NCBI GenBank assembly: GCA_000004985.1
Contig: GG738860.1
Strand: one strand, 5' to 3'
From: Naegleria gruberi
Taxonomy: Eukaryota
DNA: 64,000 nt
The notes beneath the pieces are model-generated. The model was not told where the DNA came from and searched no databases. It saw only the letters and a list, made by a program, of their open reading frames with translations. The stretch's first letter is position 1; every line of letters begins with the position of its first letter. Of the stretch, positions 28,700 through 55,584 are shown piece after piece. The position numbers and the translations under genes are program-made.

Positions 28700-31399
28700 T
28701 TACAAGATAACACAACCACCTCCTCCACCTCCACTGCTACTGGGTCTTGGGATGTTATTAATTTGAGTTCGGAGGTCTTGATTTTGTCTGGTTAGTTCAT
28801 CGAATTTTCTTTGAAATAATTCCTCCTGATTAGAATATTTGGAATGTATTTGAGCAACTTGGGAAGAGTATTCTTTCTTAATTTCTGTTTCTTTTTTGTC
28901 CCATTCCAATTTGAAATGGTTGAGGTCTTGTTCATGAGCTTGTTGCTGCTCTATTAAGGTATGTAAATGTTTTTCATTTTGCAGTTTCATATCTTCTAGT
29001 TCTTGTAAACGAGTAAGTTGTTCTGATTCGAGTTTGGTAATTTCAAGCCTTTGTTGTTCTTGTTCTAACATTTGTATTACCTTTTCGGATTCGTAATCCT
29101 GTAATTTGGATAAATAGTTAGCACATTCGACAGTTAAATTCTCAATATCTTGCAAAAGGTAAGTTCTAACTTGCTCTCTACCTGGACCTTTGCATTGAGC
29201 TTCGAATTGTTTCATTTGTCTTTCAGCCTCTTTCTCTAAATCTTGAACTGTGGCATCGTGGGTTAAAGCTCTAATAAAGAGTGATATATTTTGTTTCATT
29301 TCGGATCGTACTTGCTCGCACAACCTAACAGATTTGTCCATATTGTTACTTTCTATTTGGGATCTCTCTTTTTTAATTAATTCAAACAACTTGTCAGAAT
29401 ATTCTCTCAATATCTTTTCATCTTTTTCAAACATGGAGTCTCTGTTGAATATGTCAAGAATTGTTGCCCATGTTTTTGTGTGTTGTTTACGGATTTCACA
29501 AATTTCATAAATACTGTTACTGTTCAAATGTTTCTTCATTTCCCTTTCGTATAAATTTACACATTTTTCAATTGTCTTATTGTAGGTATTTTCAATTACC
29601 ATTGTAAATTTGTCCTCAATATTAGGAATCATTCCATGTGTTTTAATGGTTTTCAAATATAATAATATTAAAGTAACATAGCGAGTTCCATCTAATAAAC
29701 CTCCATTCATATTTTGTTTTGGTTTAATATTGGATGGAACGAAACTGTTAACAAAAGTAGACATTTCCTTAATGAAGTTAGCATTCAGTAAATGTTCTAC
29801 GTATGGAATATCAGGAACACAACCTGTAGCAGGTGCTTCCATATGATATGTATCAAAAGTTTCAAAAGATTCAATTACTTTTTTTCTTGAATCATTGTTG
29901 CAAACCTTATTCAAAATAAAGGAGGTAAGAGTCTTAAATTCAGCTGGTATATTCAATTTGAAATCTCTGAACAACCAAATACATCTTGGTTTCATATAAC
30001 TATTGCACTCCGTATTGTTTTGATTGGATGATTTCAATTGAATGTTTTGAGTGAATCTGGTGGTAATTTCAAGTGTCTCCATACTACTTGCTGTAGGACA
30101 AGTTGTGGTATTATAAATAAACAGAGATGATAGTAATACACTTAGAATCATAATGTGATTATCATCAGAAGCGTTAGCAGATGCTGCATCAACACCTTCA
30201 GTGTCTATCAATAAAACTTTCAATTTCTGATTGCCGTAGACCATTTCAATTGGCTCTGACCATATCCAAATTCCAAATGTTTTAGCTTCTACTGTGTGTC
30301 CTAAATGAAAGCTATCTGCAGGAACATTATCACCAACTAATCTACTAAGAGAGTATGATTTACCTTCCCTTGTTCTTCCAGCAAGTACAATTGCTCCAAT
30401 AGGCTCCTTGATATTTTTGATTATGTCAAGAGCTTGTTTCTGGAAGATTAAACCCTCTCTACGTCCGTTCTCTGATAACAGAATGTATTGACCATTGGGA
30501 GTGACCACCATATTTTTAGGAAGTAAGAGAGGAATTGCTTTACCGTGGAGTTTAACAACTTGAAAAGCAGGGTTTTGGGATGAGTTGTCTCCAGCAAATA
30601 CTAAAAGACCCCAATCGCCAAAATAATCCACGTTAACAACAATATTGTTTTCCATACAGAGGTAAATACTTTGATTTGTTGTAATATTTTCTCCAACATG
30701 ACATTGTCCATAAATGGTAAAGGTAGCATAATTTTTTTGATAATAGCCATTCTCAACTTCAAATCTATTAACATTTGGTGAAAGTACTAACTTTCTATGG
30801 ACTCTTGAAGAATAGATAAATACTGTATCTCCAGATTTAACAATACCATCTTTTGATTGATCATTAGCATTTACAAAATACAGTAGATCGTTTTCAGCAG
30901 AAAAGTGAGGGAGAGCTACTAATACATTTTGCTCCTTCAATCCCACATATAGATTGGTATTTGAGTTCATGATGGCTACTGGCTCTTTGTAAAATAAATT
31001 AGTATCTTTACACTTTTCAACAAATGGATCAAATATGCTATCTGAAACTAAATCAGGGTCTGCTTCCATTTCTTTAAGAATATCCTTTGAAGAGTTTGGT
31101 ACTTTGGAATCATTATCTATGGGTTGATCAAAGTCCATGTCAAGATAACTGAATGATTCGGCCAAATCTTCGAGACTATCATTAATAGCTTTTCTTTCTG
31201 AAGTATGAATGAAAGTGTAATATTCAATGGCGTCTTCAAGATGACCCATGCTATTTTGGATGGCTTCAAACACTAAATTCAAATCCGACAAATCCATTTC
31301 TATCATTCTCCAGAATGTTGAGGTGGCTAAATCGCAAGCTTCTTTTCCATACTCCTCAAAGTGTTTCTCGATTTTATCCAATACTGTGTGGTGATCCAT
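28700..31399 (-). CDS. guanylate-binding-protein (GBP)-like large GTPase, paralog 1: ~330-aa N-terminal extension + GBP GTPase domain + coiled coil + Gly run + CaaX (CVIL)
   Basis: AIVLAGRTREGKSYSLSRL (P-loop), EAKTFGIWIW (GBP TKGIW signature), LLIDTEGVD (G3), then ...HIMILSVLLSSLFIYNT. The C-terminus is ...RPSSSGGGGGGCVIL*, which is prenylatable. Confidence 0.8.
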   Translation of the reverse strand: MDHHTVLDKIEKHFEEYGKEACDLATSTFWRMIEMDLSDLNLVFEAIQNSMGHLEDAIEYYTFIHTSERKAINDSLEDLAESFSYLDMDFDQPIDNDSKVPNSSKDILKEMEADPDLVSDSIFDPFVEKCKDTNLFYKEPVAIMNSNTNLYVGLKEQNVLVALPHFSAENDLLYFVNANDQSKDGIVKSGDTVFIYSSRVHRKLVLSPNVNRFEVENGYYQKNYATFTIYGQCHVGENITTNQSIYLCMENNIVVNVDYFGDWGLLVFAGDNSSQNPAFQVVKLHGKAIPLLLPKNMVVTPNGQYILLSENGRREGLIFQKQALDIIKNIKEPIGAIVLAGRTREGKSYSLSRLVGDNVPADSFHLGHTVEAKTFGIWIWSEPIEMVYGNQKLKVLLIDTEGVDAASANASDDNHIMILSVLLSSLFIYNTTTCPTASSMETLEITTRFTQNIQLKSSNQNNTECNSYMKPRCIWLFRDFKLNIPAEFKTLTSFILNKVCNNDSRKKVIESFETFDTYHMEAPATGCVPDIPYVEHLLNANFIKEMSTFVNSFVPSNIKPKQNMNGGLLDGTRYVTLILLYLKTIKTHGMIPNIEDKFTMVIENTYNKTIEKCVNLYEREMKKHLNSNSIYEICEIRKQHTKTWATILDIFNRDSMFEKDEKILREYSDKLFELIKKERSQIESNNMDKSVRLCEQVRSEMKQNISLFIRALTHDATVQDLEKEAERQMKQFEAQCKGPGREQVRTYLLQDIENLTVECANYLSKLQDYESEKVIQMLEQEQQRLEITKLESEQLTRLQELEDMKLQNEKHLHTLIEQQQAHEQDLNHFKLEWDKKETEIKKEYSSQVAQIHSKYSNQEELFQRKFDELTRQNQDLRTQINNIPRPSSSGGGGGGCVIL

Positions 31400-31625: not shown

Positions 31626-34154
31626 TTACAAAATATTACAAAAACCAGATGATCTATTATTCATATTTGCAAGACTACTGGTTAGATTAGAAATTTGTCT
31701 TGAACTATCAGCAGATTGTTGTTGTAAAACATTAATCATTTGAGTCATTCTTTGTTCGGATTGAGCTTGCTGTTGAGTAAACATTTGATTCATATTTTGG
31801 AGATTTTCCTTATGTTCAAAGAGGAGTCTTTCTTGGAGTTCTTGCATTTTCTTCTTTTCATCATTTGATGCAGCAAGCATTTCTTTTTGGAATTCTTTGA
31901 TTTTGTCCATTGTTTCCTTGTATAATTCTTCTTTGGCTTTTTCAGATTGTTCGAGGTTTTCTAATTGCTGTCTGACTTTTGCAGTTTCTTGTTGGATGGC
32001 TTGATTTTTCAGTCGTTGTTGAATCAAATCTTCCTTGTAGCTCTTAACTTTCTTCAACTTGTTTTTATCTAATTCACTTCTTTCTTCAAAGAAGGTTTTA
32101 AGTACTTCAGTCTTGGCTGGTCCTTTTGCTCTCTGATCGTATAATTTACCAATCTGATCAAAGACAAGCTCAATATCTTCCATTGACTTGTTCTCAATAT
32201 CATTTTCAAGAGATTCAACTGCTTGTTTGTGAAGAGAGGAGATTATCTCATGACATTGCTTTCTAGATACTTCACGATTCTTCAAAAAGAAAGAGTGAAT
32301 TAAACCTCCAGTGATATTGCCAGACTTATCTGTGGTCATGAATGAATTTGCCAATTTTTCAAACTCCTTCTTGATAACATCTTCATCGGTAAAGACAACA
32401 TTTTGGGAAAATCTTTTTCCCAATGTTGCAATAATGTTTCCATGAATTTCCAATAGTTCAGTATGCTCAATAGGCAAAGGGCATTCAACGATCTTTTCAT
32501 TCATCATGGTAGTGTACAATTCAGGGAGTAGTTGCTCTTCCTTTCTGAGTGATGTTTCAGAAATGAGAGAAATTGGATCAGAGAATGAAGGAACCATTCC
32601 AGGAGTATTCAACTTGAAAATATAATTGAACAATACTACTGGCAAATGATCTATTGTCATTTGAGCCTTTGATCCATGTTTGTTGTGGAAATATTTTGGT
32701 GGTGCATTTTGAACAATTTCATAAACGACCTGTTCCACCTTTTGCAAGAACTCTGGGTTCAGATAATGCCAATAATCTGCAATGGAGGTAAGAATTTGGG
32801 TACTGACATGTGGAGGTGGAATAGTATCATATCTCCTGTTTTGGAAATACATGACGATATCCCTAACAATATTATCCAATTGGTCATCTCCACGTTTAAG
32901 AATTTCTCTTTCCATGTAGCTGTCAAGAGTCTGGCCATATGGAAGTTGTAAAAACACGTCCCTCATTATCCAGTGGAAAAATGGTGAATAGGAGCCTTTC
33001 TCCAAACTAAGGGTTTCAGCAATTTTGGATACAAATGACAAATGGTGCAAGTCAGATCTTTTTGGTGAGCTTTGTGAGTTGTAAACAAAGTAAGATGAAA
33101 TCAAAACTGAAAGAATTAAGAGCAAGTAATCATTATCATTTGAAGCGTCAGTTGAGTTCATGCCTTCACAGTCCAAAACGAGCAACAAAGTCTCTTTTCC
33201 TTCAACAAGAGAGCAAGACATCCAGATTCCTTTGGTTTTAGCAATCACTTCATTACCCAATTCAAATGCAGTAAAAGTTCTGTCATTAATCAATCGACAT
33301 GACAAGAGACTTTTACCTAATCTCATAGGTCCTGATACAGTTACGATACCAATAGGAATTTTGCCAAAATTCTTGACCATTGTTCTTATAGCCTGAACTG
33401 ATTCTCTGACGAGATACAATCTATCAGGAGCTCTACAATTGGAATCAACGAGACCAGTTTGAGGATTGACATATCCTTCACTTCCATTCAATTTCACCAT
33501 TTGACTTGTTTGTGGATCAAAGTAGTGATCTGTAAATTGAACAAGAGGAATACTTTTCATGCCCTCTAGGGGAAAACTTTCGCCTTCATCAAAAAACTCC
33601 TCGTCCTTAACATATTCAGGGATTGATTCAATACTAATTGGTCTAGTATCACCTCTCGTAGTGGCTCTTTTAGTTACTGTTTGAGGAAATGATCTTGGAA
33701 TACTTGGTGAAGGTCGTATATGGGCTCTCCTTTCAAATTGGTCAGAGTGCTGAGAATTGTTACCAACAAAACCTGGAGAAAATTGATACATTGGCTGTGG
33801 ATTATTTTGAAATGGATTCACATTGAAGTATTGGTAAGGAGGAAGATGATTACCAAATGAAACAGGAGTGCTAGCTCCATCAAATGTTGATTCTGGTAAA
33901 TAAGCTTGTCCAGTAACTTCATGTTGTTGAGGATTTCCAAACGCCATGGGATAGAATCCATTGTTTACATTATTGTTCATTTGTGGTTGAGGAATAATAT
34001 AACGTGGAAATGGCATTTGAGAATTGTAATAGGACGGAACACCAACCGAGAAATCACTCATTTGAGAGTTTGGAGTGGTCGTTCTTGGACAATAGTTTGA
34101 ATCTCCCTTATTGCTTTGCATTGTTTTTTTTGTTTTACTTGCAGAAATGATCAT
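31626..34154 (-). CDS. GBP-like large GTPase, paralog 2: Q/N/P-rich prion-like N-terminus + GBP GTPase domain + helical/coiled-coil domain + CaaX (CNIL)
   Basis: IGIVTVSGPMRLGKSLLSCRL (canonical G..R.GKS P-loop), AKTKGIWM, LVLDCEGM, ILSVLISSYFVYNS. The C-terminus is ...NNRSSGFCNIL* (CaaL box; human GBP2 ends CNIL). The first ATG in frame is at 34154 (the ORF track starts at a TTG at 34163). Confidence 0.8.
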   Translation of the reverse strand: MIISASKTKKTMQSNKGDSNYCPRTTTPNSQMSDFSVGVPSYYNSQMPFPRYIIPQPQMNNNVNNGFYPMAFGNPQQHEVTGQAYLPESTFDGASTPVSFGNHLPPYQYFNVNPFQNNPQPMYQFSPGFVGNNSQHSDQFERRAHIRPSPSIPRSFPQTVTKRATTRGDTRPISIESIPEYVKDEEFFDEGESFPLEGMKSIPLVQFTDHYFDPQTSQMVKLNGSEGYVNPQTGLVDSNCRAPDRLYLVRESVQAIRTMVKNFGKIPIGIVTVSGPMRLGKSLLSCRLINDRTFTAFELGNEVIAKTKGIWMSCSLVEGKETLLLVLDCEGMNSTDASNDNDYLLLILSVLISSYFVYNSQSSPKRSDLHHLSFVSKIAETLSLEKGSYSPFFHWIMRDVFLQLPYGQTLDSYMEREILKRGDDQLDNIVRDIVMYFQNRRYDTIPPPHVSTQILTSIADYWHYLNPEFLQKVEQVVYEIVQNAPPKYFHNKHGSKAQMTIDHLPVVLFNYIFKLNTPGMVPSFSDPISLISETSLRKEEQLLPELYTTMMNEKIVECPLPIEHTELLEIHGNIIATLGKRFSQNVVFTDEDVIKKEFEKLANSFMTTDKSGNITGGLIHSFFLKNREVSRKQCHEIISSLHKQAVESLENDIENKSMEDIELVFDQIGKLYDQRAKGPAKTEVLKTFFEERSELDKNKLKKVKSYKEDLIQQRLKNQAIQQETAKVRQQLENLEQSEKAKEELYKETMDKIKEFQKEMLAASNDEKKKMQELQERLLFEHKENLQNMNQMFTQQQAQSEQRMTQMINVLQQQSADSSRQISNLTSSLANMNNRSSGFCNIL

Positions 34155-34323: not shown

Positions 34324-36759
34324 ATGCAATCTGCTAAACCTCTCATATTATTCAAAAGCTCTGTTAATGGAGAATTAAATTCATCTGATTGTGGTGAACC
34401 TTTTCTGGTTCAAGAAACAGTCAATGAATTACTACAATTGACCGATTTACTCAACAAACCAGTCAAGGTAATTGGAGTATGTGGTCCAAAGAGGGCTGCT
34501 AAAACTTCTCTTGCCAATTATCTTGCTCAATCTGTATCATTTGAAGTTGGACATTCAATTGAGTCCAAAACAAAGGGTATTTGGTTGTTTGTAGTTGATA
34601 AACAAGATCATTCCTTAATCATTTTGGATTCTGAGGGTTTTGATGAAGCCTCAACTGCCCAAGATCAACTCTTGTTCATTATCCTGTACTTTTTGTGTTC
34701 CCTCCTTGTTTTCAATACCAGTCATGTGCCAACAAGACAAAATGTTCAAGATTTACAATTTCTAGCCGAATTTAAATCCAAGCTACTTGTATCTGAAGCT
34801 TCAACCCATAACAAATCTGTTCATCCAACCTTCTTGAATTCATTTGGTCCAAACTTTTTATGGTTGATTAGGGATAAATTCTTGAATATTCCCAACGAAT
34901 TTCAAGACATGGAAGATTTCATGTTGAGAGTAGTCCTGGCAAAATCAAATGATGGAAAGGATCATTTGAGAGAAAACATTCTCACCATCTTCAATAGAGT
35001 CTTCTTTGATTTTTTACCTGTACCTGGAGAGCCATCATTCCAGTCAAAATTGGAACATGTTACAATGAATGTTATTTTGGCTAATGTTCCATTAAAAAAA
35101 TTGGTCAATCCTGAAGATATTGGCGATAGAGAAAGTGTTACTTTGGAAACATTCCTTAAATTGGTTGAACTTGTTATTCATCAAATGACTCGAACTCTTA
35201 ACAAGATTCCAGTAATTGACAATATTTTTCATACCATCACCTCCAATAAGGAAATTTACAATTTAAAACGTGCCGTTCAAGTATACGTTGATCACATGAG
35301 CAGGGAACTTGATGATATTGACCCAGTTGACTATGACATATTCACTGAAATAGATAAGCAAGCTGTTGCTAAGGCAACCAAAACCTATTTTGAAGGAATT
35401 CCATCTTCAACTGCAGATTCGAATAGATTACTTTCTGATCTCATGCAAAAGAAGAAGAGTTTCATTGACGACCAAAATGAAAAATCCAAAACATATTGTA
35501 CCTCTCTCATCAAACAATTGTACTCGAAAATGGTTGCTCCCCAAGTAAAACAGTTAATGAATGTCAGAGGTGATATTTCCATGTTGCTTGACACTATTGA
35601 TAAATTCAAGAAGGAATACCATTCGAAAGCTAAAGGAAACATGGCAGTCTCTGTTTTGAATGGCTATTATAATCATCATATTACTAAGGATTTGAATAAT
35701 TTGAGTTCAATAAGAGAGTATGAAGAGAATGTGAAGAATATTAAGGAAGAATTTTCTCACAACTTGGTTCAGTTGAAGGAAGCTGAAAAATCTCTTGTCA
35801 CATTTGAGAACAATATTTCTCAAAATACAAACTATCAACAAATGCTAGAAATGCAAACAAAACTGCAATCTGAACTCTTTAAAGAAGTGATGATTGCTCA
35901 GAGGGAATCACAAGCTAATACTCTAGTCTCCATTGATATGCTCTCAAAGAGTATGCATGACTCTCAGAGACAAGCTCTTAGCATGTATTCTGCAATGCAA
36001 CAATCTCAGCAACAAGCACAAACTCAACAATTAGCTCTCGTTCTAGAGCATAATAGAATTGCAAGTGAGCAACTTAATCAAGCAATGGAAAAAACTACTC
36101 AAGCAGTAATTCAGTATAATGCCAATAGAGAAGATGATTCTTTTTTGGGAAAGGTTGGAAAGATTGGTTTAATAGTTGGTTTAGGTGCTTTGGCACCTGC
36201 ATTGGGTGCCATTCCACATGTTGGATCTGTCCTCTCTGCAACAGCTACAGGAATGAGTGCAGTTATGGGAAAGCAATTGCTCGGACAAGAATATGACCCA
36301 AGACTAATTCAAACCAATACTACTCCTACTCCTCCAAAGGTTAGTCATAGTCCATCAGTCAATCGAGACTCCTTATTATCTCAATTCACAACCAATGCTC
36401 TCTCACAACAAGTGCATCCACAAAATCAACAAGTAACCAACAGCCATCAACCAAGAGCTGTTGTTAGCCAGCTGCCAAGAAAGAATCCTATTGTGCAACC
36501 TCAAAAATCTTCAATCACAGAGTCCACAAAATATGAATTGGGTGGAGAGTTTAAACAAGTTGGCCTCAATGGATCTTATTCCAATACTGTTACAAAAGAT
36601 ATGTTTCCTTATGGCTGTCAATGGGGATGTGGACGTGAAAATGTTTGTTCAAAGCCAGGCCATTCATGTGGAAGACCATCATGCAATGAGGAAAGAAATA
36701 AGAAATCCTATTTCAAAGGCACACTTGGTGTAATGTCAACAACAAGAAACAAGTTGTGA
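34324..36759 (+). CDS. GBP-like large GTPase, paralog 3 (divergent: degenerate P-loop, Gly-rich hydrophobic segment, Cys-rich C-terminus, no CaaX)
   Basis: VKVIGVCGPKRAAKTSLANYL (P-loop with AKT in place of GKS), ESKTKGIWLF, LIILDSEGFD, LFIILYFLCSLLVFNTS. Downstream is a helical domain, then GKVGKIGLIVGLGALAPALGAIPHVGSVLSATATGMSAVMG (glycine-zipper/TM-like) and a Cys-rich tail YGCQWGCGRENVCSKPGHSCGRPSCNEE. Confidence 0.7.
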   Translation: MQSAKPLILFKSSVNGELNSSDCGEPFLVQETVNELLQLTDLLNKPVKVIGVCGPKRAAKTSLANYLAQSVSFEVGHSIESKTKGIWLFVVDKQDHSLIILDSEGFDEASTAQDQLLFIILYFLCSLLVFNTSHVPTRQNVQDLQFLAEFKSKLLVSEASTHNKSVHPTFLNSFGPNFLWLIRDKFLNIPNEFQDMEDFMLRVVLAKSNDGKDHLRENILTIFNRVFFDFLPVPGEPSFQSKLEHVTMNVILANVPLKKLVNPEDIGDRESVTLETFLKLVELVIHQMTRTLNKIPVIDNIFHTITSNKEIYNLKRAVQVYVDHMSRELDDIDPVDYDIFTEIDKQAVAKATKTYFEGIPSSTADSNRLLSDLMQKKKSFIDDQNEKSKTYCTSLIKQLYSKMVAPQVKQLMNVRGDISMLLDTIDKFKKEYHSKAKGNMAVSVLNGYYNHHITKDLNNLSSIREYEENVKNIKEEFSHNLVQLKEAEKSLVTFENNISQNTNYQQMLEMQTKLQSELFKEVMIAQRESQANTLVSIDMLSKSMHDSQRQALSMYSAMQQSQQQAQTQQLALVLEHNRIASEQLNQAMEKTTQAVIQYNANREDDSFLGKVGKIGLIVGLGALAPALGAIPHVGSVLSATATGMSAVMGKQLLGQEYDPRLIQTNTTPTPPKVSHSPSVNRDSLLSQFTTNALSQQVHPQNQQVTNSHQPRAVVSQLPRKNPIVQPQKSSITESTKYELGGEFKQVGLNGSYSNTVTKDMFPYGCQWGCGRENVCSKPGHSCGRPSCNEERNKKSYFKGTLGVMSTTRNKL

Positions 36760-36923: not shown

Positions 36924-38006
36924 CTAGATATTGTCACAAGAAAAGTACAAGTTGAATTCCTTCAACTCTTCCACTAACATTTCGTATTGTTCCTTGCAAT
37001 CTGAATGTGAAAGTACAGTCATACCAGTAATATCCTTCAGCTCAATTTCAGGTTCATTGATTGGCGTGTCTGGATTAAATAATTGAAATATTGTCAAATT
37101 TTGTGGTTTTTGTCTAAAGAATGGCATATTAATAAGATCATTAGAGGGGAGAGAGAATCTTCTTGGTCTCTCTTCATAAACTTGATCCACAACACAATCA
37201 TCATCCAAATTCATTTGGTCAGAACAGTTGGGACTTGTTAAGCCACTACCTCCACTGCTATGATTACTATTTGGTGAAGCATTACTGGCAACAGAAGGAG
37301 TATTACTGCTACCACCTATCATGTGTTTTTTCATGTGTGCAAGAGGAGGAGGAGAACTAATTGCTCTATCTCTTGAACCACTGCTACCATTGAACGAAAA
37401 TGGACTCAAATTACTAGTACCAAAGGCATGGGAGGATGGTGATGGAGCTGTTATGGCCAATGAACGTTGTGTGGTAATGACGATTGGTGGAGAGGATTGT
37501 GTCGATGATTCATGGTGGACATTATTCAGACAAGAGGTGGTATTGTTATTATTATGATGATTACTTTGGCAAGTCGACACTGATGAAGATTGGTATTGTT
37601 GTTTTGGATGTATCGTCGACGATGGAGAGTCATGAATCATGGTTGTACTGGTGGAGAGTTGCTGCTGATGACAATCGCCACCATTATTCAAGTCTAATTG
37701 CTGTGAGGGTGAACCAACATACTCATTAGAAAGTTGATGAAACCCCTGATGATGATGTCCAATGTTCAAACTATGACCCGTCGTCGTTAATGATGATGAT
37801 GAACATATCATTGTTGGTGATGAGAAGTATGGTGAGATGCAATTTGTTGTTCTTCTTGTTGTTGTTGGTTCATTTTTAAAAACTTGTGAGGGAGAACTTT
37901 TATGTATTGATGAAAATGTCGAGTGTTCTCGTTTTGTGTTTTTGACTTGTAAAGGGCAGAATCTGTGTTGTCCTCTCTTCTCTGGTGTGTTGATGATGAT
38001 TCTCAA
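36924..38006 (-). CDS. hypothetical Ser/Thr/His/Asn-rich low-complexity protein
   Basis: A 360-aa ORF, mostly low complexity (SSSS, HHNNNNTT, poly-S/T), ending in a short ordered C-terminus ...LKDITGMTVLSHSDCKEQYEMLVEELKEFNLYFSCDNI*. The true start is uncertain. Confidence 0.35.
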   Translation of the reverse strand: MRIIINTPEKRGQHRFCPLQVKNTKREHSTFSSIHKSSPSQVFKNEPTTTRRTTNCISPYFSSPTMICSSSSLTTTGHSLNIGHHHQGFHQLSNEYVGSPSQQLDLNNGGDCHQQQLSTSTTMIHDSPSSTIHPKQQYQSSSVSTCQSNHHNNNNTTSCLNNVHHESSTQSSPPIVITTQRSLAITAPSPSSHAFGTSNLSPFSFNGSSGSRDRAISSPPPLAHMKKHMIGGSSNTPSVASNASPNSNHSSGGSGLTSPNCSDQMNLDDDCVVDQVYEERPRRFSLPSNDLINMPFFRQKPQNLTIFQLFNPDTPINEPEIELKDITGMTVLSHSDCKEQYEMLVEELKEFNLYFSCDNI

Positions 38007-52003: not shown

Positions 52004-52744
52004 TTACATGCATAATGTAAAATACAATAATACTAGTAAGGTGATCAAAGTTGTAGTACCTCCTGATAGACTTGAATGTAGTGTCATTGAATTGCCTGTA
52101 CACATGACAGAATCTGCCATATCAAAACTCTTCCAAGAACCTTGATAAACTCTATTAATTCCATTACTTGTTGATAGACATCTAAAATCTATCAACTCTC
52201 TCGAGTTACAACTTGCATAATAATTCTCACACGAGGACATGCAGAGATTGTAAATTTGTGTTGACTCGTCCCTACTCACATCACATAGTGGAAAGAAGTG
52301 TTGACAAATGTAACGTCTTGCTGCATTGTAGCACTGACTTTTTTGAAATAATCCCTTGTGATAGACTTCCGAGTTGAATGATAATAATGCCTGTCTATCA
52401 CTCAATTTTAAATAATCAACAATTGTCAAGTTGTAAGAGTCAAAGGTTGATGAAGAATTGGTGAGTGTTAAATTATTAGATATGCAAATTCGTATCGATT
52501 CGTTGAGTGTCATGTACTCGTTGATAGTTTCCAAGCAGAAAGTTTCGTTTGCATTCGTTTGCGAAATAAAATCATAGAGAAGAGGAGAAGATAGAGAGGT
52601 ACATTCACCCGAACAAGATCCATAGAAATTGTTATTGTTTAATGTTTCCGATTCGTTCATAAGTGTGAACACCAAGAGAATGACAAGAAAGAATGAAGGA
52701 TTTTTCATGTTGTTGGAATTTTTTTTGATTTGTGAATTGGCCAA
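52004..52744 (-). CDS. secreted/GPI-anchored-type Cys-rich protein (signal peptide, many N-glyc sequons, C-terminal hydrophobic tail); possible Frizzled-like CRD
   Basis: The N-terminus MKNPSFFLVILLVFTLMNES is a signal-peptide candidate. There are 14 Cys with spacing ...CQHFFPLC...LCMSSCENYYASC...C..., multiple N.T/N.S sequons, and a C-terminal GGTTTLITLLVLLYFTLCM* (GPI-signal-like). Confidence 0.5.
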   Translation of the reverse strand: MANSQIKKNSNNMKNPSFFLVILLVFTLMNESETLNNNNFYGSCSGECTSLSSPLLYDFISQTNANETFCLETINEYMTLNESIRICISNNLTLTNSSSTFDSYNLTIVDYLKLSDRQALLSFNSEVYHKGLFQKSQCYNAARRYICQHFFPLCDVSRDESTQIYNLCMSSCENYYASCNSRELIDFRCLSTSNGINRVYQGSWKSFDMADSVMCTGNSMTLHSSLSGGTTTLITLLVLLYFTLCM

Positions 52745-52812
52745 TAATTATAATCACCTCAATTTTTGTCTCGAAACGAGGATGTGCTTGCAATTTAAAT
52801 TTTAAAAAAAAA

Positions 52813-53327
52813 ATGATGTCAGCAACAGGAAATCATCATGAACAACAAAATAATGAACAACAGCAGTCGGAAAGAGCCAACCGTAAAAAGATTTTAGATG
52901 CTGTCTTGGAGTATTATTCAGAGGCTTTTTCTATAGAAAAAAGTAACGAGCAAATTAAAAACAAAATGGACCTTTGTTTACCGAAACATGTCTGTAAGCG
53001 TATTTCATTTAAATTATTGAAAACAGGAGCAAATATAAATTCCATTAGTGAGAAAGTTTTGAAAATTCCAAAAAAAGAAAAGAAAATTGAAAATCATGAA
53101 GAAGTGCTTCTTTCCCAAGCAGACTTGGATGATTTTAATAAGGAACCAACACAACATGACACTGAGGAGAAAAAAAAACAAATAATGGAGTATACTGAGC
53201 AGTATGTTCAGAAAAAGTCACAGAGTGTGCTTTCACAGATGGATAGTATTACTTTTCCCAAAAAGATTAGAGCAAGACTTGATCAAATTTCTAATATTAT
53301 TGCTAAAACCTGTATTCATCTAGAAGA
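52813..53327 (+). CDS. 5' part of a hypothetical gene running into the 1484-N gap
   Basis: ATG at 52813: MMSATGNHHEQQNNEQQQSERANRKKILDAVLEYYSEAF... is open to the gap edge. No family recognised. Confidence 0.4.
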
Positions 53328-54811
53328 NNNNNNNNNNNNNNNNNNNNNNNNNNNNNNNNNNNNNNNNNNNNNNNNNNNNNNNNNNNNNNNNNNNNNNNNN
53401 NNNNNNNNNNNNNNNNNNNNNNNNNNNNNNNNNNNNNNNNNNNNNNNNNNNNNNNNNNNNNNNNNNNNNNNNNNNNNNNNNNNNNNNNNNNNNNNNNNNN
53501 NNNNNNNNNNNNNNNNNNNNNNNNNNNNNNNNNNNNNNNNNNNNNNNNNNNNNNNNNNNNNNNNNNNNNNNNNNNNNNNNNNNNNNNNNNNNNNNNNNNN
53601 NNNNNNNNNNNNNNNNNNNNNNNNNNNNNNNNNNNNNNNNNNNNNNNNNNNNNNNNNNNNNNNNNNNNNNNNNNNNNNNNNNNNNNNNNNNNNNNNNNNN
53701 NNNNNNNNNNNNNNNNNNNNNNNNNNNNNNNNNNNNNNNNNNNNNNNNNNNNNNNNNNNNNNNNNNNNNNNNNNNNNNNNNNNNNNNNNNNNNNNNNNNN
53801 NNNNNNNNNNNNNNNNNNNNNNNNNNNNNNNNNNNNNNNNNNNNNNNNNNNNNNNNNNNNNNNNNNNNNNNNNNNNNNNNNNNNNNNNNNNNNNNNNNNN
53901 NNNNNNNNNNNNNNNNNNNNNNNNNNNNNNNNNNNNNNNNNNNNNNNNNNNNNNNNNNNNNNNNNNNNNNNNNNNNNNNNNNNNNNNNNNNNNNNNNNNN
54001 NNNNNNNNNNNNNNNNNNNNNNNNNNNNNNNNNNNNNNNNNNNNNNNNNNNNNNNNNNNNNNNNNNNNNNNNNNNNNNNNNNNNNNNNNNNNNNNNNNNN
54101 NNNNNNNNNNNNNNNNNNNNNNNNNNNNNNNNNNNNNNNNNNNNNNNNNNNNNNNNNNNNNNNNNNNNNNNNNNNNNNNNNNNNNNNNNNNNNNNNNNNN
54201 NNNNNNNNNNNNNNNNNNNNNNNNNNNNNNNNNNNNNNNNNNNNNNNNNNNNNNNNNNNNNNNNNNNNNNNNNNNNNNNNNNNNNNNNNNNNNNNNNNNN
54301 NNNNNNNNNNNNNNNNNNNNNNNNNNNNNNNNNNNNNNNNNNNNNNNNNNNNNNNNNNNNNNNNNNNNNNNNNNNNNNNNNNNNNNNNNNNNNNNNNNNN
54401 NNNNNNNNNNNNNNNNNNNNNNNNNNNNNNNNNNNNNNNNNNNNNNNNNNNNNNNNNNNNNNNNNNNNNNNNNNNNNNNNNNNNNNNNNNNNNNNNNNNN
54501 NNNNNNNNNNNNNNNNNNNNNNNNNNNNNNNNNNNNNNNNNNNNNNNNNNNNNNNNNNNNNNNNNNNNNNNNNNNNNNNNNNNNNNNNNNNNNNNNNNNN
54601 NNNNNNNNNNNNNNNNNNNNNNNNNNNNNNNNNNNNNNNNNNNNNNNNNNNNNNNNNNNNNNNNNNNNNNNNNNNNNNNNNNNNNNNNNNNNNNNNNNNN
54701 NNNNNNNNNNNNNNNNNNNNNNNNNNNNNNNNNNNNNNNNNNNNNNNNNNNNNNNNNNNNNNNNNNNNNNNNNNNNNNNNNNNNNNNNNNNNNNNNNNNN
54801 NNNNNNNNNNN
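53328..54811. other. assembly gap (1484 N)
   Basis: Run of n. Confidence 1.
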
Positions 54812-55584
54812 ATTTAATTAACAATATGGAAATTAAATATTTAGGATTAAAAAATGAAATTTTTATTTCAATTTTATCACCAACAATTGTGTGGTATGAT
54901 TACTTTGTTTCAAATTATTGTAAAATTTATCCATTAAAAGATTATAAATTAATTTTATTATTAATTATTAAATTATTTATTGATAATTTAAATGGATTAA
55001 AATTATTACATGAATTAAATATTTCACATATTGATTTTAACATTTTAAATTCTAACATAATATTAAATAATTGTTCTGATTTAATTAGTAAATATTTAAA
55101 AGAAAATAATTTACCAACATTTAATATGGTATTAATTGATTTTAATAGTTCAAAATTAGAAAGTCAATTATTATTTACAAATGAATACATTCCAAAAACA
55201 ACACATTATCCTCCTGATTATAAATTATATTATGATAATATAAAACCAAATATATCATTTACAAAAGCACATGATATTTATTCATTATCTATTGTAATGA
55301 TTCAATATATTAACATTTTGATTAATTGTTATGGGAATAATTGCTTTCAAATGAAATCAAATACTATTAGATATATAAATCAATCACATAGAAACAAAGA
55401 CGAACCATTCAATATTGATTTTAATATTTTAAATTTTAATATTTTAAATAGTTTTGAAAAGGAAATTTTTAATGAATTATTTGAAATGATAAGAGAAATG
55501 AATTTAAACCCTTGGAAAATTATTAATGAAAAAGATTATTGTTTACAACAATTAGAAAAATTACAAAATAATGTATTGAATTAG
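54812..55584 (+). CDS. extremely AT-rich protein-kinase-like C-lobe fragment (possible pseudokinase); 5' end lost in gap
   Basis: It is open from the gap edge to TAG at 55582-55584. LHELNISHIDFNILNSNIIL (HRD-region-like with HID), LIDFNSS (DFG-like DFN), PPDYKLYYDN (APE-like), DIYSLSIVM (DIWSLG-like). Composition is about 85% A+T versus about 65-70% elsewhere. Confidence 0.35.

Follow-up and report, generated by a model that had tools for sequence, protein, structure and literature searches.

Conserved C-terminal CaaX boxes, predicted prenylation signals, in two of three clustered GBP-family GTPases of the amoeba Naegleria gruberi

In humans, it is prenylation that enables the guanylate-binding proteins (GBPs) GBP1, GBP2 and GBP5 to form coats on bacteria and on pathogen vacuoles. 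Naegleria is a free-living amoeba that feeds on bacteria and naturally hosts intracellular ones; it has no interferon system, interferon being absent, to our knowledge, from protists. Here we describe, in a window of 64,000 nucleotides of the Naegleria gruberi contig GG738860.1 (assembly GCA_000004985.1), three adjoining genes for GTPases of the GBP family, a part of the dynamin superfamily, with paralog 2 and paralog 3 in divergent arrangement. Two of the encoded proteins, paralog 1 (P1) and paralog 2 (P2), end in conserved CaaX boxes, that is, tetrapeptides with a cysteine four residues from the end, an aliphatic residue in the a2 position and a terminal residue X that can be read by farnesyltransferase (FTase) or geranylgeranyltransferase type I (GGTase-I), and the third, paralog 3 (P3), carries a different candidate anchor. 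The reviews of the family portray GBPs as ancient and present in protists, amoebae, plants and algae, treat CaaX boxes for vertebrates only, and describe an intrinsically disordered region (IDR) in plant GBPs and a predicted transmembrane segment in Dictyostelium (PMC8565484); a search of the literature found no paper on Naegleria GBPs or on CaaX boxes of protist GBPs. The conserved boxes described here extend the existing knowledge and overturn none of it: GBPs of the predicted lipid-anchored type, like those of human cell-autonomous immunity, are also present in a free-living protist.

The closest described systems are the human proteins. P1 and P2 share with GBP2 (CNIL, geranylgeranylated) and GBP5 (CVLL) the large GTPase (LG) domain with GBP-type G motifs, the helical middle/effector region and the terminal CaaL. 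The CNIL of GBP2 has been found experimentally to be prenylated, and the membrane association of the protein depends on it (PMC2998424); as the original prediction had pointed out, the tetrapeptide of P2 is identical. In humans and in Naegleria alike, the GBP genes form a tandem cluster of paralogs in which some members are prenylated, by prediction in the case of Naegleria, and others are not. However, the Naegleria proteins show only about 20-25% identity to GBP2 and GBP5 and differ from them in several respects. P1 has an N-terminal extension of 285 amino acids (aa), and P2 has an N-terminal low-complexity region rich in Q, N and P; the helical region at the C-terminus is considerably longer, with a predicted helix of 116 residues; a run of Gly residues links this region to the box; and the position of human Ser73 is occupied by Ala. 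Human GBP1 (CTIS, farnesylated) is the best match in both sequence and structure, and the predicted extended effector helix of P1 resembles that of the membrane-bound form, 8r1a.

All three paralogs are GBPs. The N-terminal large GTPase domain of the family (PF02263) scores 110.6, 78.3 and 71.0 bits in P1, P2 and P3, respectively, at a cut-off of 21.1 (E-values of 9.5e-32 for P1 and 7e-22 for P2), and the GBP_C domain (PF02841) passes its cut-off of 24.3 bits in P1 (39.0) and P3 (37.8) and falls slightly under it in P2 (21.6), whose alignment with P1 and with its orthologs nevertheless spans the whole protein. The best matches to P1 among the sequences of solved structures are human GBP1, GBP2 and GBP5 (E-values from 5e-31 to 7e-27), with atlastins far behind. 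The paralogs contain the GBP-type G motifs, namely, a GxxRxGKS P-loop with an internal Arg finger, a switch-I Thr, DxEG, and, at G4, an RD motif ((T/L)xRD) in place of NKxD. In the alignment, R344, K347, T374, D399, E401, G402, R478 and D479 of P1 are invariant or nearly so, and it is the P-loop of P3 that deviates (GPKRAAKT). The position of Ser73 of human GBP1, a residue that has a part in catalysis, is occupied by Ala in P1, P2 and their orthologs (AKT versus SHT in switch I), whereas P3 retains Ser. The assignment of P1 and P2 to the GBPs in the original prediction is thus in agreement with the Pfam domains, the structure matches and the G motifs. Since the open reading frame (ORF) of P1 shows 100% identity, with full-length coverage, to the public entry 'predicted protein [Naegleria gruberi]', its C-terminus is not an artefact of ORF calling.

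P1 ends in SSSGGGGGG-CVIL and P2 in SSGF-CNIL, each followed by a stop codon, and both tetrapeptides match the CaaX definition given above. Reading the codons (Table 1) bears out two statements of the original prediction, that both boxes sit right before the stop and that a GGGGGG hinge precedes the one in P1. Two others need amendment: the interval 28700-28714, to which both boxes had been assigned, holds that of P1, and that of P2 lies outside it, at 31626-31640; and the description Cys-aliphatic-aliphatic-Leu fits CVIL in full, while in CNIL the a2 residue is of the Ile/Leu type and the a1 residue, Asn, is not aliphatic. The Ser3-Gly6 linker ahead of the P1 box is a predicted disordered, flexible segment: in the AlphaFold2 (AF2) model, residues 881-899 have a predicted local distance difference test (pLDDT) value below 50, and no secondary structure is modelled beyond residue 876. 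From the amino acid composition of the window, a C-terminus would be expected to read C-x-[VILMF]-[LFMSQAC] with a probability of about 8e-4. The window contains 41 stop-to-stop ORFs of 150 aa or more; only three have a Cxxx ending, and two of these three are P1 and P2.

The evidence that carries our interpretation of these tails comes from their orthologs. The same three orthogroups (OG1, OG2 and OG3, for P1, P2 and P3, respectively) were found in the heterolobosean Willaertia magna and in a metagenomic relative. In the latter, a 10-kb contig (L001; also L002) contains genes for a 904-aa OG1 protein (P0002), a 715-aa OG3 protein and an 868-aa OG2 protein side by side. In W. magna, one contig (L003) carries the OG1 and OG2 genes (P0065 and P0067) at a distance of about 7 kb, and another, of 27 kb, carries a second OG1 copy (P0212) and the OG3 gene (P0073), with NCBI accession numbers and locus tags five apart. 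In neighbor-joining (NJ) bootstrap analysis, OG1 was monophyletic with 85% support and OG2+OG3 with 82%. The OG1 tails read NNIPRPSSSGGGGGG-CVIL in N. gruberi, NNMPRPSSGGSRGF-CTIQ in the metagenomic contig, and SNMPRGGGGGRRG-CILM and, in the second copy, GGGGGGGG-CILM in W. magna; the OG2 tails of the same three lineages read ANMNNRSSGF-CNIL, SNMDRGG-CIIL and SNMGSGGGF-CTIL. Thus, in six or seven OG1 and OG2 tails from three lineages, the Cys is invariant, a2 is Ile or Leu throughout, and the stop codon comes after exactly three more residues. The linker before the box varies, being Gly-rich, of variable length and rich in indels among the OG1 orthologs. No loss of the box was found in OG1 and OG2 of W. 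magna and the metagenomic relative, which are about 65-70% diverged, and in OG3 the box is absent from all three lineages.

Because the OG1 and OG2 tails keep the CaaX pattern across three lineages in which identity within orthogroups is only 30-38%, the box is under selection, of the purifying kind, and this selection dates back at least to the split of Naegleria and Willaertia. We consider it highly probable that P1 and P2 end in genuine CaaX prenylation signals, which selection maintains. By contrast, the match between the P2 box and that of human GBP2 is probably a coincidence, given that the OG2 orthologs have different a1 residues (N, I, T).

Several observations weigh against this interpretation. 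The lipidation of P1 and P2 is deduced from sequence, not from biochemistry. Human GBP1 and many other GBPs have tails with a polybasic stretch (in GBP1, an adjacent RRR) or an extra Cys, whereas neither feature adjoins the box of P1 or P2, and therefore targeting to a particular membrane must come from elsewhere. The replacement of Ser73 by Ala in P1 and P2 may entail different GTPase kinetics. The predicted type of lipid is, from the terminal residues, not conserved in OG1, and the presence of GGTase-I in Naegleria is not established: when human PGGT1B, its sequence checked against PDB 1n4p_B, was used as the query in a collection of 5.8 billion proteins, the best 120 matches listed were all metazoan. 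Finally, no orthologs were seen in N. fowleri or N. lovaniensis in a library of representatives that has gaps; because this library lacks even P0002, which is part of the query profile, the missing orthologs are not evidence of loss.

CaaX tails in GBPs extend far beyond a coincidence between Naegleria and vertebrates. An exhaustive search of 1.84 billion cluster representatives with a profile of P1, P0002, P2 and P3 yielded 5834 GBP homologues. Among the best 150 of these 5834 representatives, 41 (27%) have a Cxxx end, compared with about 1.2% expected from the frequency of Cys alone, and 39 of the 41 conform to the canonical pattern. Such ends occur in GBPs of amphioxus (Branchiostoma, CTIL and CVVM), of Glandiceps (CSIQ), of vertebrates (Anolis, GGGGI-CTIL; Albula, CVLS; Lerista, CVIS), of cnidarians (Nematostella, CIIL; Stylophora, CVVM) and a centipede (Strigamia, GGGD-CVIL), of a fungus (Basidiobolus, CNVM), of Amoebozoa (Cavenderia fasciculata, SGGGGGG-CNIL; Cavostelium, CAIM) and of the rhizarian Lapot gusevi (CIVM); in a separate, word-indexed search, a GBP of the oomycete Phytophthora palmivora was found to end in CVIQ. 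CaaX tails are thus common in GBPs over several eukaryotic supergroups.

The architecture of these tails is shared as well. GG occurs within six residues before the Cys in 16 of 48 CaaX-bearing GBP tails, against a background of 1.3%, and N-x-P at the end of the last helix in nine of the 48, against 3.3%; the latter is common to OG1 and the GBPs of amphioxus, Nematostella and reptiles. The Gly-run 'hinge' of P1 is thus a recurrent design rather than a peculiarity of Naegleria. The protein of the dictyostelid C. fasciculata (DFA_08813) has this tail design, combining a Gly run and a CaaX box on a GBP with GBP and GBP_C regions, and the same combination is found in GBPs of Strigamia, Branchiostoma (GGGG-CVVM) and Cavostelium (GG-CAIM). 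All four are uncharacterised database entries, and in the NJ tree no one of them groups as an ortholog with the Naegleria genes.

Whether this distribution reflects common origin is a separate question. The conservation of the box within Heterolobosea is established at the level of the aligned tails, and its homology with the metazoan boxes is plausible, not demonstrated, the reasons being the breadth of the distribution and the shared architecture. The alternative, that the heterolobosean tails arose apart from the metazoan ones, the motif being short, easily gained and selected for membrane anchoring of GBPs, in our estimate has a considerable probability that falls somewhat short of even. 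In the NJ tree of 162 sequences, CaaX tips are scattered over almost all clades (46 tips in 32 CaaX-only clades; 31 changes by parsimony), and a two-state Markov model on this tree gives about equal rates of gain and loss (0.48 and 0.49). The model assigns the CaaX state a probability of 0.98 in the OG1 ancestor, 0.68 in the OG2+OG3 ancestor, 0.28 in the node that joins OG1 with OG2/3, and 0.01 in the midpoint root, and the type of tail (Gly run, polybasic, extra Cys) varies by lineage, all of which is compatible with repeated gain. However, the deep nodes of the tree are without support, OG1+OG2+OG3 being monophyletic in 1.5% of the bootstraps. Moreover, loss of such a motif is mechanistically far easier than gain, and gene-model truncations together with errors in the NJ tree inflate the apparent gains. 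Convergence also has to account for the occurrence of the box in more than a quarter of the closest GBP representatives, over Discoba, Amoebozoa, Fungi, Metazoa and Rhizaria, as well as in the oomycete GBP, and for a tail in which helix end, N-x-P, Gly run and CaaX recur. Ancestral-state reconstruction on the NJ tree does not separate an ancient origin from repeated gain.

A more far-reaching proposition, which we put forward tentatively and regard as rather doubtful, is that the last common ancestor of most eukaryotes already possessed a GBP that was anchored by a lipid and consisted of a helical effector region, a flexible linker and a CaaX box, and that free-living amoebae such as Naegleria still run a small multi-paralog GBP system, which would serve the cell-autonomous defence against giant viruses or bacteria that live inside the cell. 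The members of that system would be a prenylated P1 with a sensor-like N-terminal domain, a prenylated P2 with a prion-like region, and a hydrophobically anchored P3. If this is the case, immunity by the coating of membranes, as carried out by human GBP1, GBP2 and GBP5, predates animals and interferon by more than 1 billion years. In any event, the origin of lipid-anchored GBP immunity becomes directly testable in a tractable protist.

With regard to the type of lipid, the original prediction of a geranylgeranylation-type Leu fits P1, P2 and all of OG2, in which X is Leu in each of the three lineages, and has to be given up for OG1 as a whole, in which X is L, Q or M and the orthologs ending in Q and M are of the farnesyl or mixed type. 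The terminal residue in Naegleria predicts a C20 isoprenoid, unlike that of human GBP1, which is C15, and the metagenomic and Willaertia OG1 proteins (CTIQ, CILM) are nearer to the farnesyl type. OG1 appears to keep a prenyl anchor as such rather than a particular lipid. The boxes could be functional without the lipid being specifically geranylgeranyl, if FTase or a single enzyme of broad specificity modifies them and the mammalian rule that CaaL means geranylgeranyl does not apply. Apart from the Q and M ends, which are FTase-type or cross-prenylated, what speaks for this view is that the only prenyltransferase gene documented for Naegleria in the literature that we found is that of FTase, in N. 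fowleri (PMC7560193), GGTase-I being unconfirmed. Against it, the Leu that is kept by OG2 in all three lineages is what one would expect if a Leu-reading GGTase-I exists, and CVIL, CIIL and CTIL are canonical geranylgeranylated sequences of the yeast GGTase-I, CVIL as in yeast Rho5 (PMC11304957). On balance, we consider such a deviation from the mammalian rule fairly unlikely. CaaX-type ends are also found on other proteins of these amoebae: the N. gruberi G-gamma subunit ends in CMIM (PMC3508898), and a 495-aa Ras-family protein of Willaertia, encoded about 7 kb from the OG1 GBP (L003:19681-21168, + strand), ends in CLIQ, which shows that small GTPases of this lineage, too, make use of CaaX tails.

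It is very improbable that the terminal Cys has some other role, such as palmitoylation only, disulfide formation or metal binding, or that the endings are functionless products of chance, for which one could cite the indirect nature of the support for prenylation and the lack of a second membrane signal adjoining the box, because, at the low chance expectation per tail given above, six independent tails nevertheless keep the Cys at position -4, the aliphatic a2 and a permitted X, because the distance from Cys to stop is fixed despite the variable length of the linker, a hallmark of CaaX recognition, and because the same motifs are proven substrates elsewhere.

Under the interpretation that we favor, in which the P1 and P2 tails are genuine prenylation signals, a cytosolic CaaX prenyltransferase would attach an isoprenoid to Cys896 of P1 and the equivalent Cys of P2, by analogy with human GBPs; going by the terminal Leu, the enzyme would be GGTase-I, and alternatively FTase or a broad-specificity enzyme. 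The last three residues would then be removed and the new C-terminus methylated, so that the lipid would sit on the disordered Ser/Gly linker past a long helical effector region resembling alpha12/13. As in human GBP1, GBP2 and GBP5, GTP-dependent dimerisation of the LG domains would expose the lipid, and P1 and P2 would anchor and assemble on cytosol-facing membranes; for human GBP1, it has been described that GTP-driven dimerisation is followed by release of the lipid and by assembly of the protein on membranes (PMC9005921). P3, in contrast, would be anchored constitutively by a hydrophobic, hairpin-like segment that replaces linker and box. Lipidation itself, the type of lipid, the target membrane (a membrane or pathogen vacuole in the original prediction) and any part that these GBPs may play in defence against giant viruses or intracellular bacteria are inferred; the last is an attractive idea for an amoeba that feeds on bacteria.

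By its predicted fold, P1 resembles the solved GBPs more than the atlastins. The AF2 model, with a mean pLDDT of 70.9, comprises an LG domain and a helical middle domain, residues 540-876 being all-helical. A Foldseek search with this model gave as the best match the model of extended, membrane-bound human GBP1 (8r1a; E-value of 5e-25), and the top ten matches were all chains of human GBP1, GBP5 and GBP2 (up to 640 aligned columns, with E-values between 5e-25 and 9e-19); atlastins ranked lower and aligned with the G domain and middle domain only. The likeness to the extended form may stem in part from the habit of AF2 to extend long helices. The N-terminal extension of P1 is specific to OG1 and gave no significant Pfam match over residues 1-285; in the AF2 model, residues 1-83 form a confident helical bundle, and residues 130-283 are beta-rich at low confidence (pLDDT below 50). 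Possibly, this extension is a sensor or targeting domain.

Table 1. Coordinates of the GBP genes and their features in the window
Feature	Position	Strand	Remarks
GBP paralog 1 (P1; OG1)	28700-31399	-	ORF, 899 aa; Pfam GBP and GBP_C
P1 CaaX box CVIL (Cys896)	28703-28714	-	stop codon 28700-28702; TGT GTT ATC TTG TAA = C-V-I-L-stop
P1 Ser3-Gly6 linker	28715-28741	-	directly upstream of box; six mixed GGA/GGT Gly codons at 28715-28732, preceded by three Ser codons
P1 helical middle/effector region (GBP_C)	28820-29698	-	residues 568-860; predicted 116-residue helix 741-856, then helix 859-876
P1 LG domain	29921-30451	-	residues 317-493 by Pfam; GxxRxGKS, T374, DTEG, RD motif
P1 N-terminal extension, OG1-specific	30545-31399	-	residues 1-285; also in OG1 orthologs
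GBP paralog 2 (P2; OG2)	31626-34154	-	ORF, 842 aa from first ATG; Pfam
P2 CaaX box CNIL	31629-31640	-	stop codon 31626-31628; TGT AAT ATT TTG TAA = C-N-I-L-stop
P2 N-terminal Q/N/P/S/Y/F/G-rich low-complexity region	33564-34154	-	about 200 aa; from composition
GBP paralog 3 (P3; OG3)	34324-36759	+	no CaaX box; N. gruberi protein of identical length EFC46010.1
P3 hydrophobic Gly/Ala/Pro-rich segment	36136-36246	+	residues 605-641; hydropathy scan and alignment

In P3, the place of the linker and the CaaX box of P1 and P2 is taken by a moderately hydrophobic segment, beyond which follow a long tail rich in S, T, P and Q and a Cys-rich end, CQWGCGRENVCSKPGHSCGRPSC. A hydropathy scan detected a comparable segment in all three OG3 orthologs (residues 605-641 in N. 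gruberi, 639-671 in the metagenome and 695-717 in Willaertia) and none in OG1 or OG2. We consider this segment a candidate for an alternative, hairpin-like membrane anchor. Because OG3 lacks the box and has the hydrophobic segment at the same place, the C-terminus of these GBPs appears to be an exchangeable membrane-anchoring module. The use of a hydrophobic anchor instead of a lipid makes P3 resemble the Dictyostelium discoideum Gnbp, which has a predicted C-terminal transmembrane domain, and the atlastins (PMC8565484); however, the segment of P3 is only moderately hydrophobic, rich in Gly, Ala and Pro, and looks like a hairpin rather than a classical transmembrane helix, and P1 and P2 have no such segment. 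An evolutionary analogy is the 'molecular tinkering' of Rheb (PMC5869587), in which an ancestral CaaX anchor gave way to other modes of attachment in several lineages, a pattern like that of OG3 versus OG2; Rheb is a small GTPase of a family other than the GBPs, and the likeness is confined to the way in which anchors were exchanged.

The N-terminal region of P2 is compositionally similar to those of its two orthologs, the combined share of Q, N, P, S, Y, F and G being 57% in P2 and 62% and 75% in the orthologs, and recalls, by its composition, regions that are prion-like or form condensates, for example the IDRs of plant GBPLs. The cluster of three paralogs is a natural system for the question of how the type of anchor and the accessory domains divide labor and, together with the family-wide prevalence of CaaX tails, is worth following.

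With respect to annotation, no protein identical or nearly identical to P2 was found in the collection of 5.8 billion proteins, in which P1 and P3 appear as N. gruberi proteins; exact look-ups with three start variants also returned nothing, in an index that lacks the annotated P1 as well and so, apparently, does not cover this assembly. It is likely, albeit not proven, that P2 is missing from the public annotation of N. gruberi.

The neighbors of the cluster are ordinary housekeeping genes, including those for MMS19, MetRS, COG7 and thioredoxin-like proteins. The third ORF of the window with a Cxxx ending (36924-38006, - strand, 360 aa) lies beside P3, has no Pfam match and ends in CDNI, a non-canonical tetrapeptide that probably arose by chance. 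An extremely AT-rich stretch at 52-56 kb (GC content of 12-22% in 2-kb bins) was rejected as a feature, being an assembly gap with about 1.5 kb of Ns at approximately 53329-54811, and the long ORFs 52732-55584 (+) and 53316-54824 (-), which span this gap, are artefacts.

Three further metagenome loci, with 28-40% identity, were rejected as orthologs because each carries a GBP gene with introns and, apparently fused to it, a Hint domain. At L004:7743-10798 and L006:7953-10785 (contig WLWD01006260.1), the intron-containing GBP homologue is followed, in the next ORF, by an autoprocessing domain of the Hint/Hedgehog type (STGG-CFLAGTKVMLSGG). Provided that splicing joins these ORFs, the product would be a GBP-Hint fusion that might gain a C-terminal modification of the sterol type, a third way to anchor a GBP by a lipid. 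Next to the metagenomic GBP cluster, the ORF L001:8494-10074 (+) likewise has a Hint-like C-terminal part (GGS-CFDGNSRILMADD), preceded by an N-terminal part that, by eye, is vWA-like.

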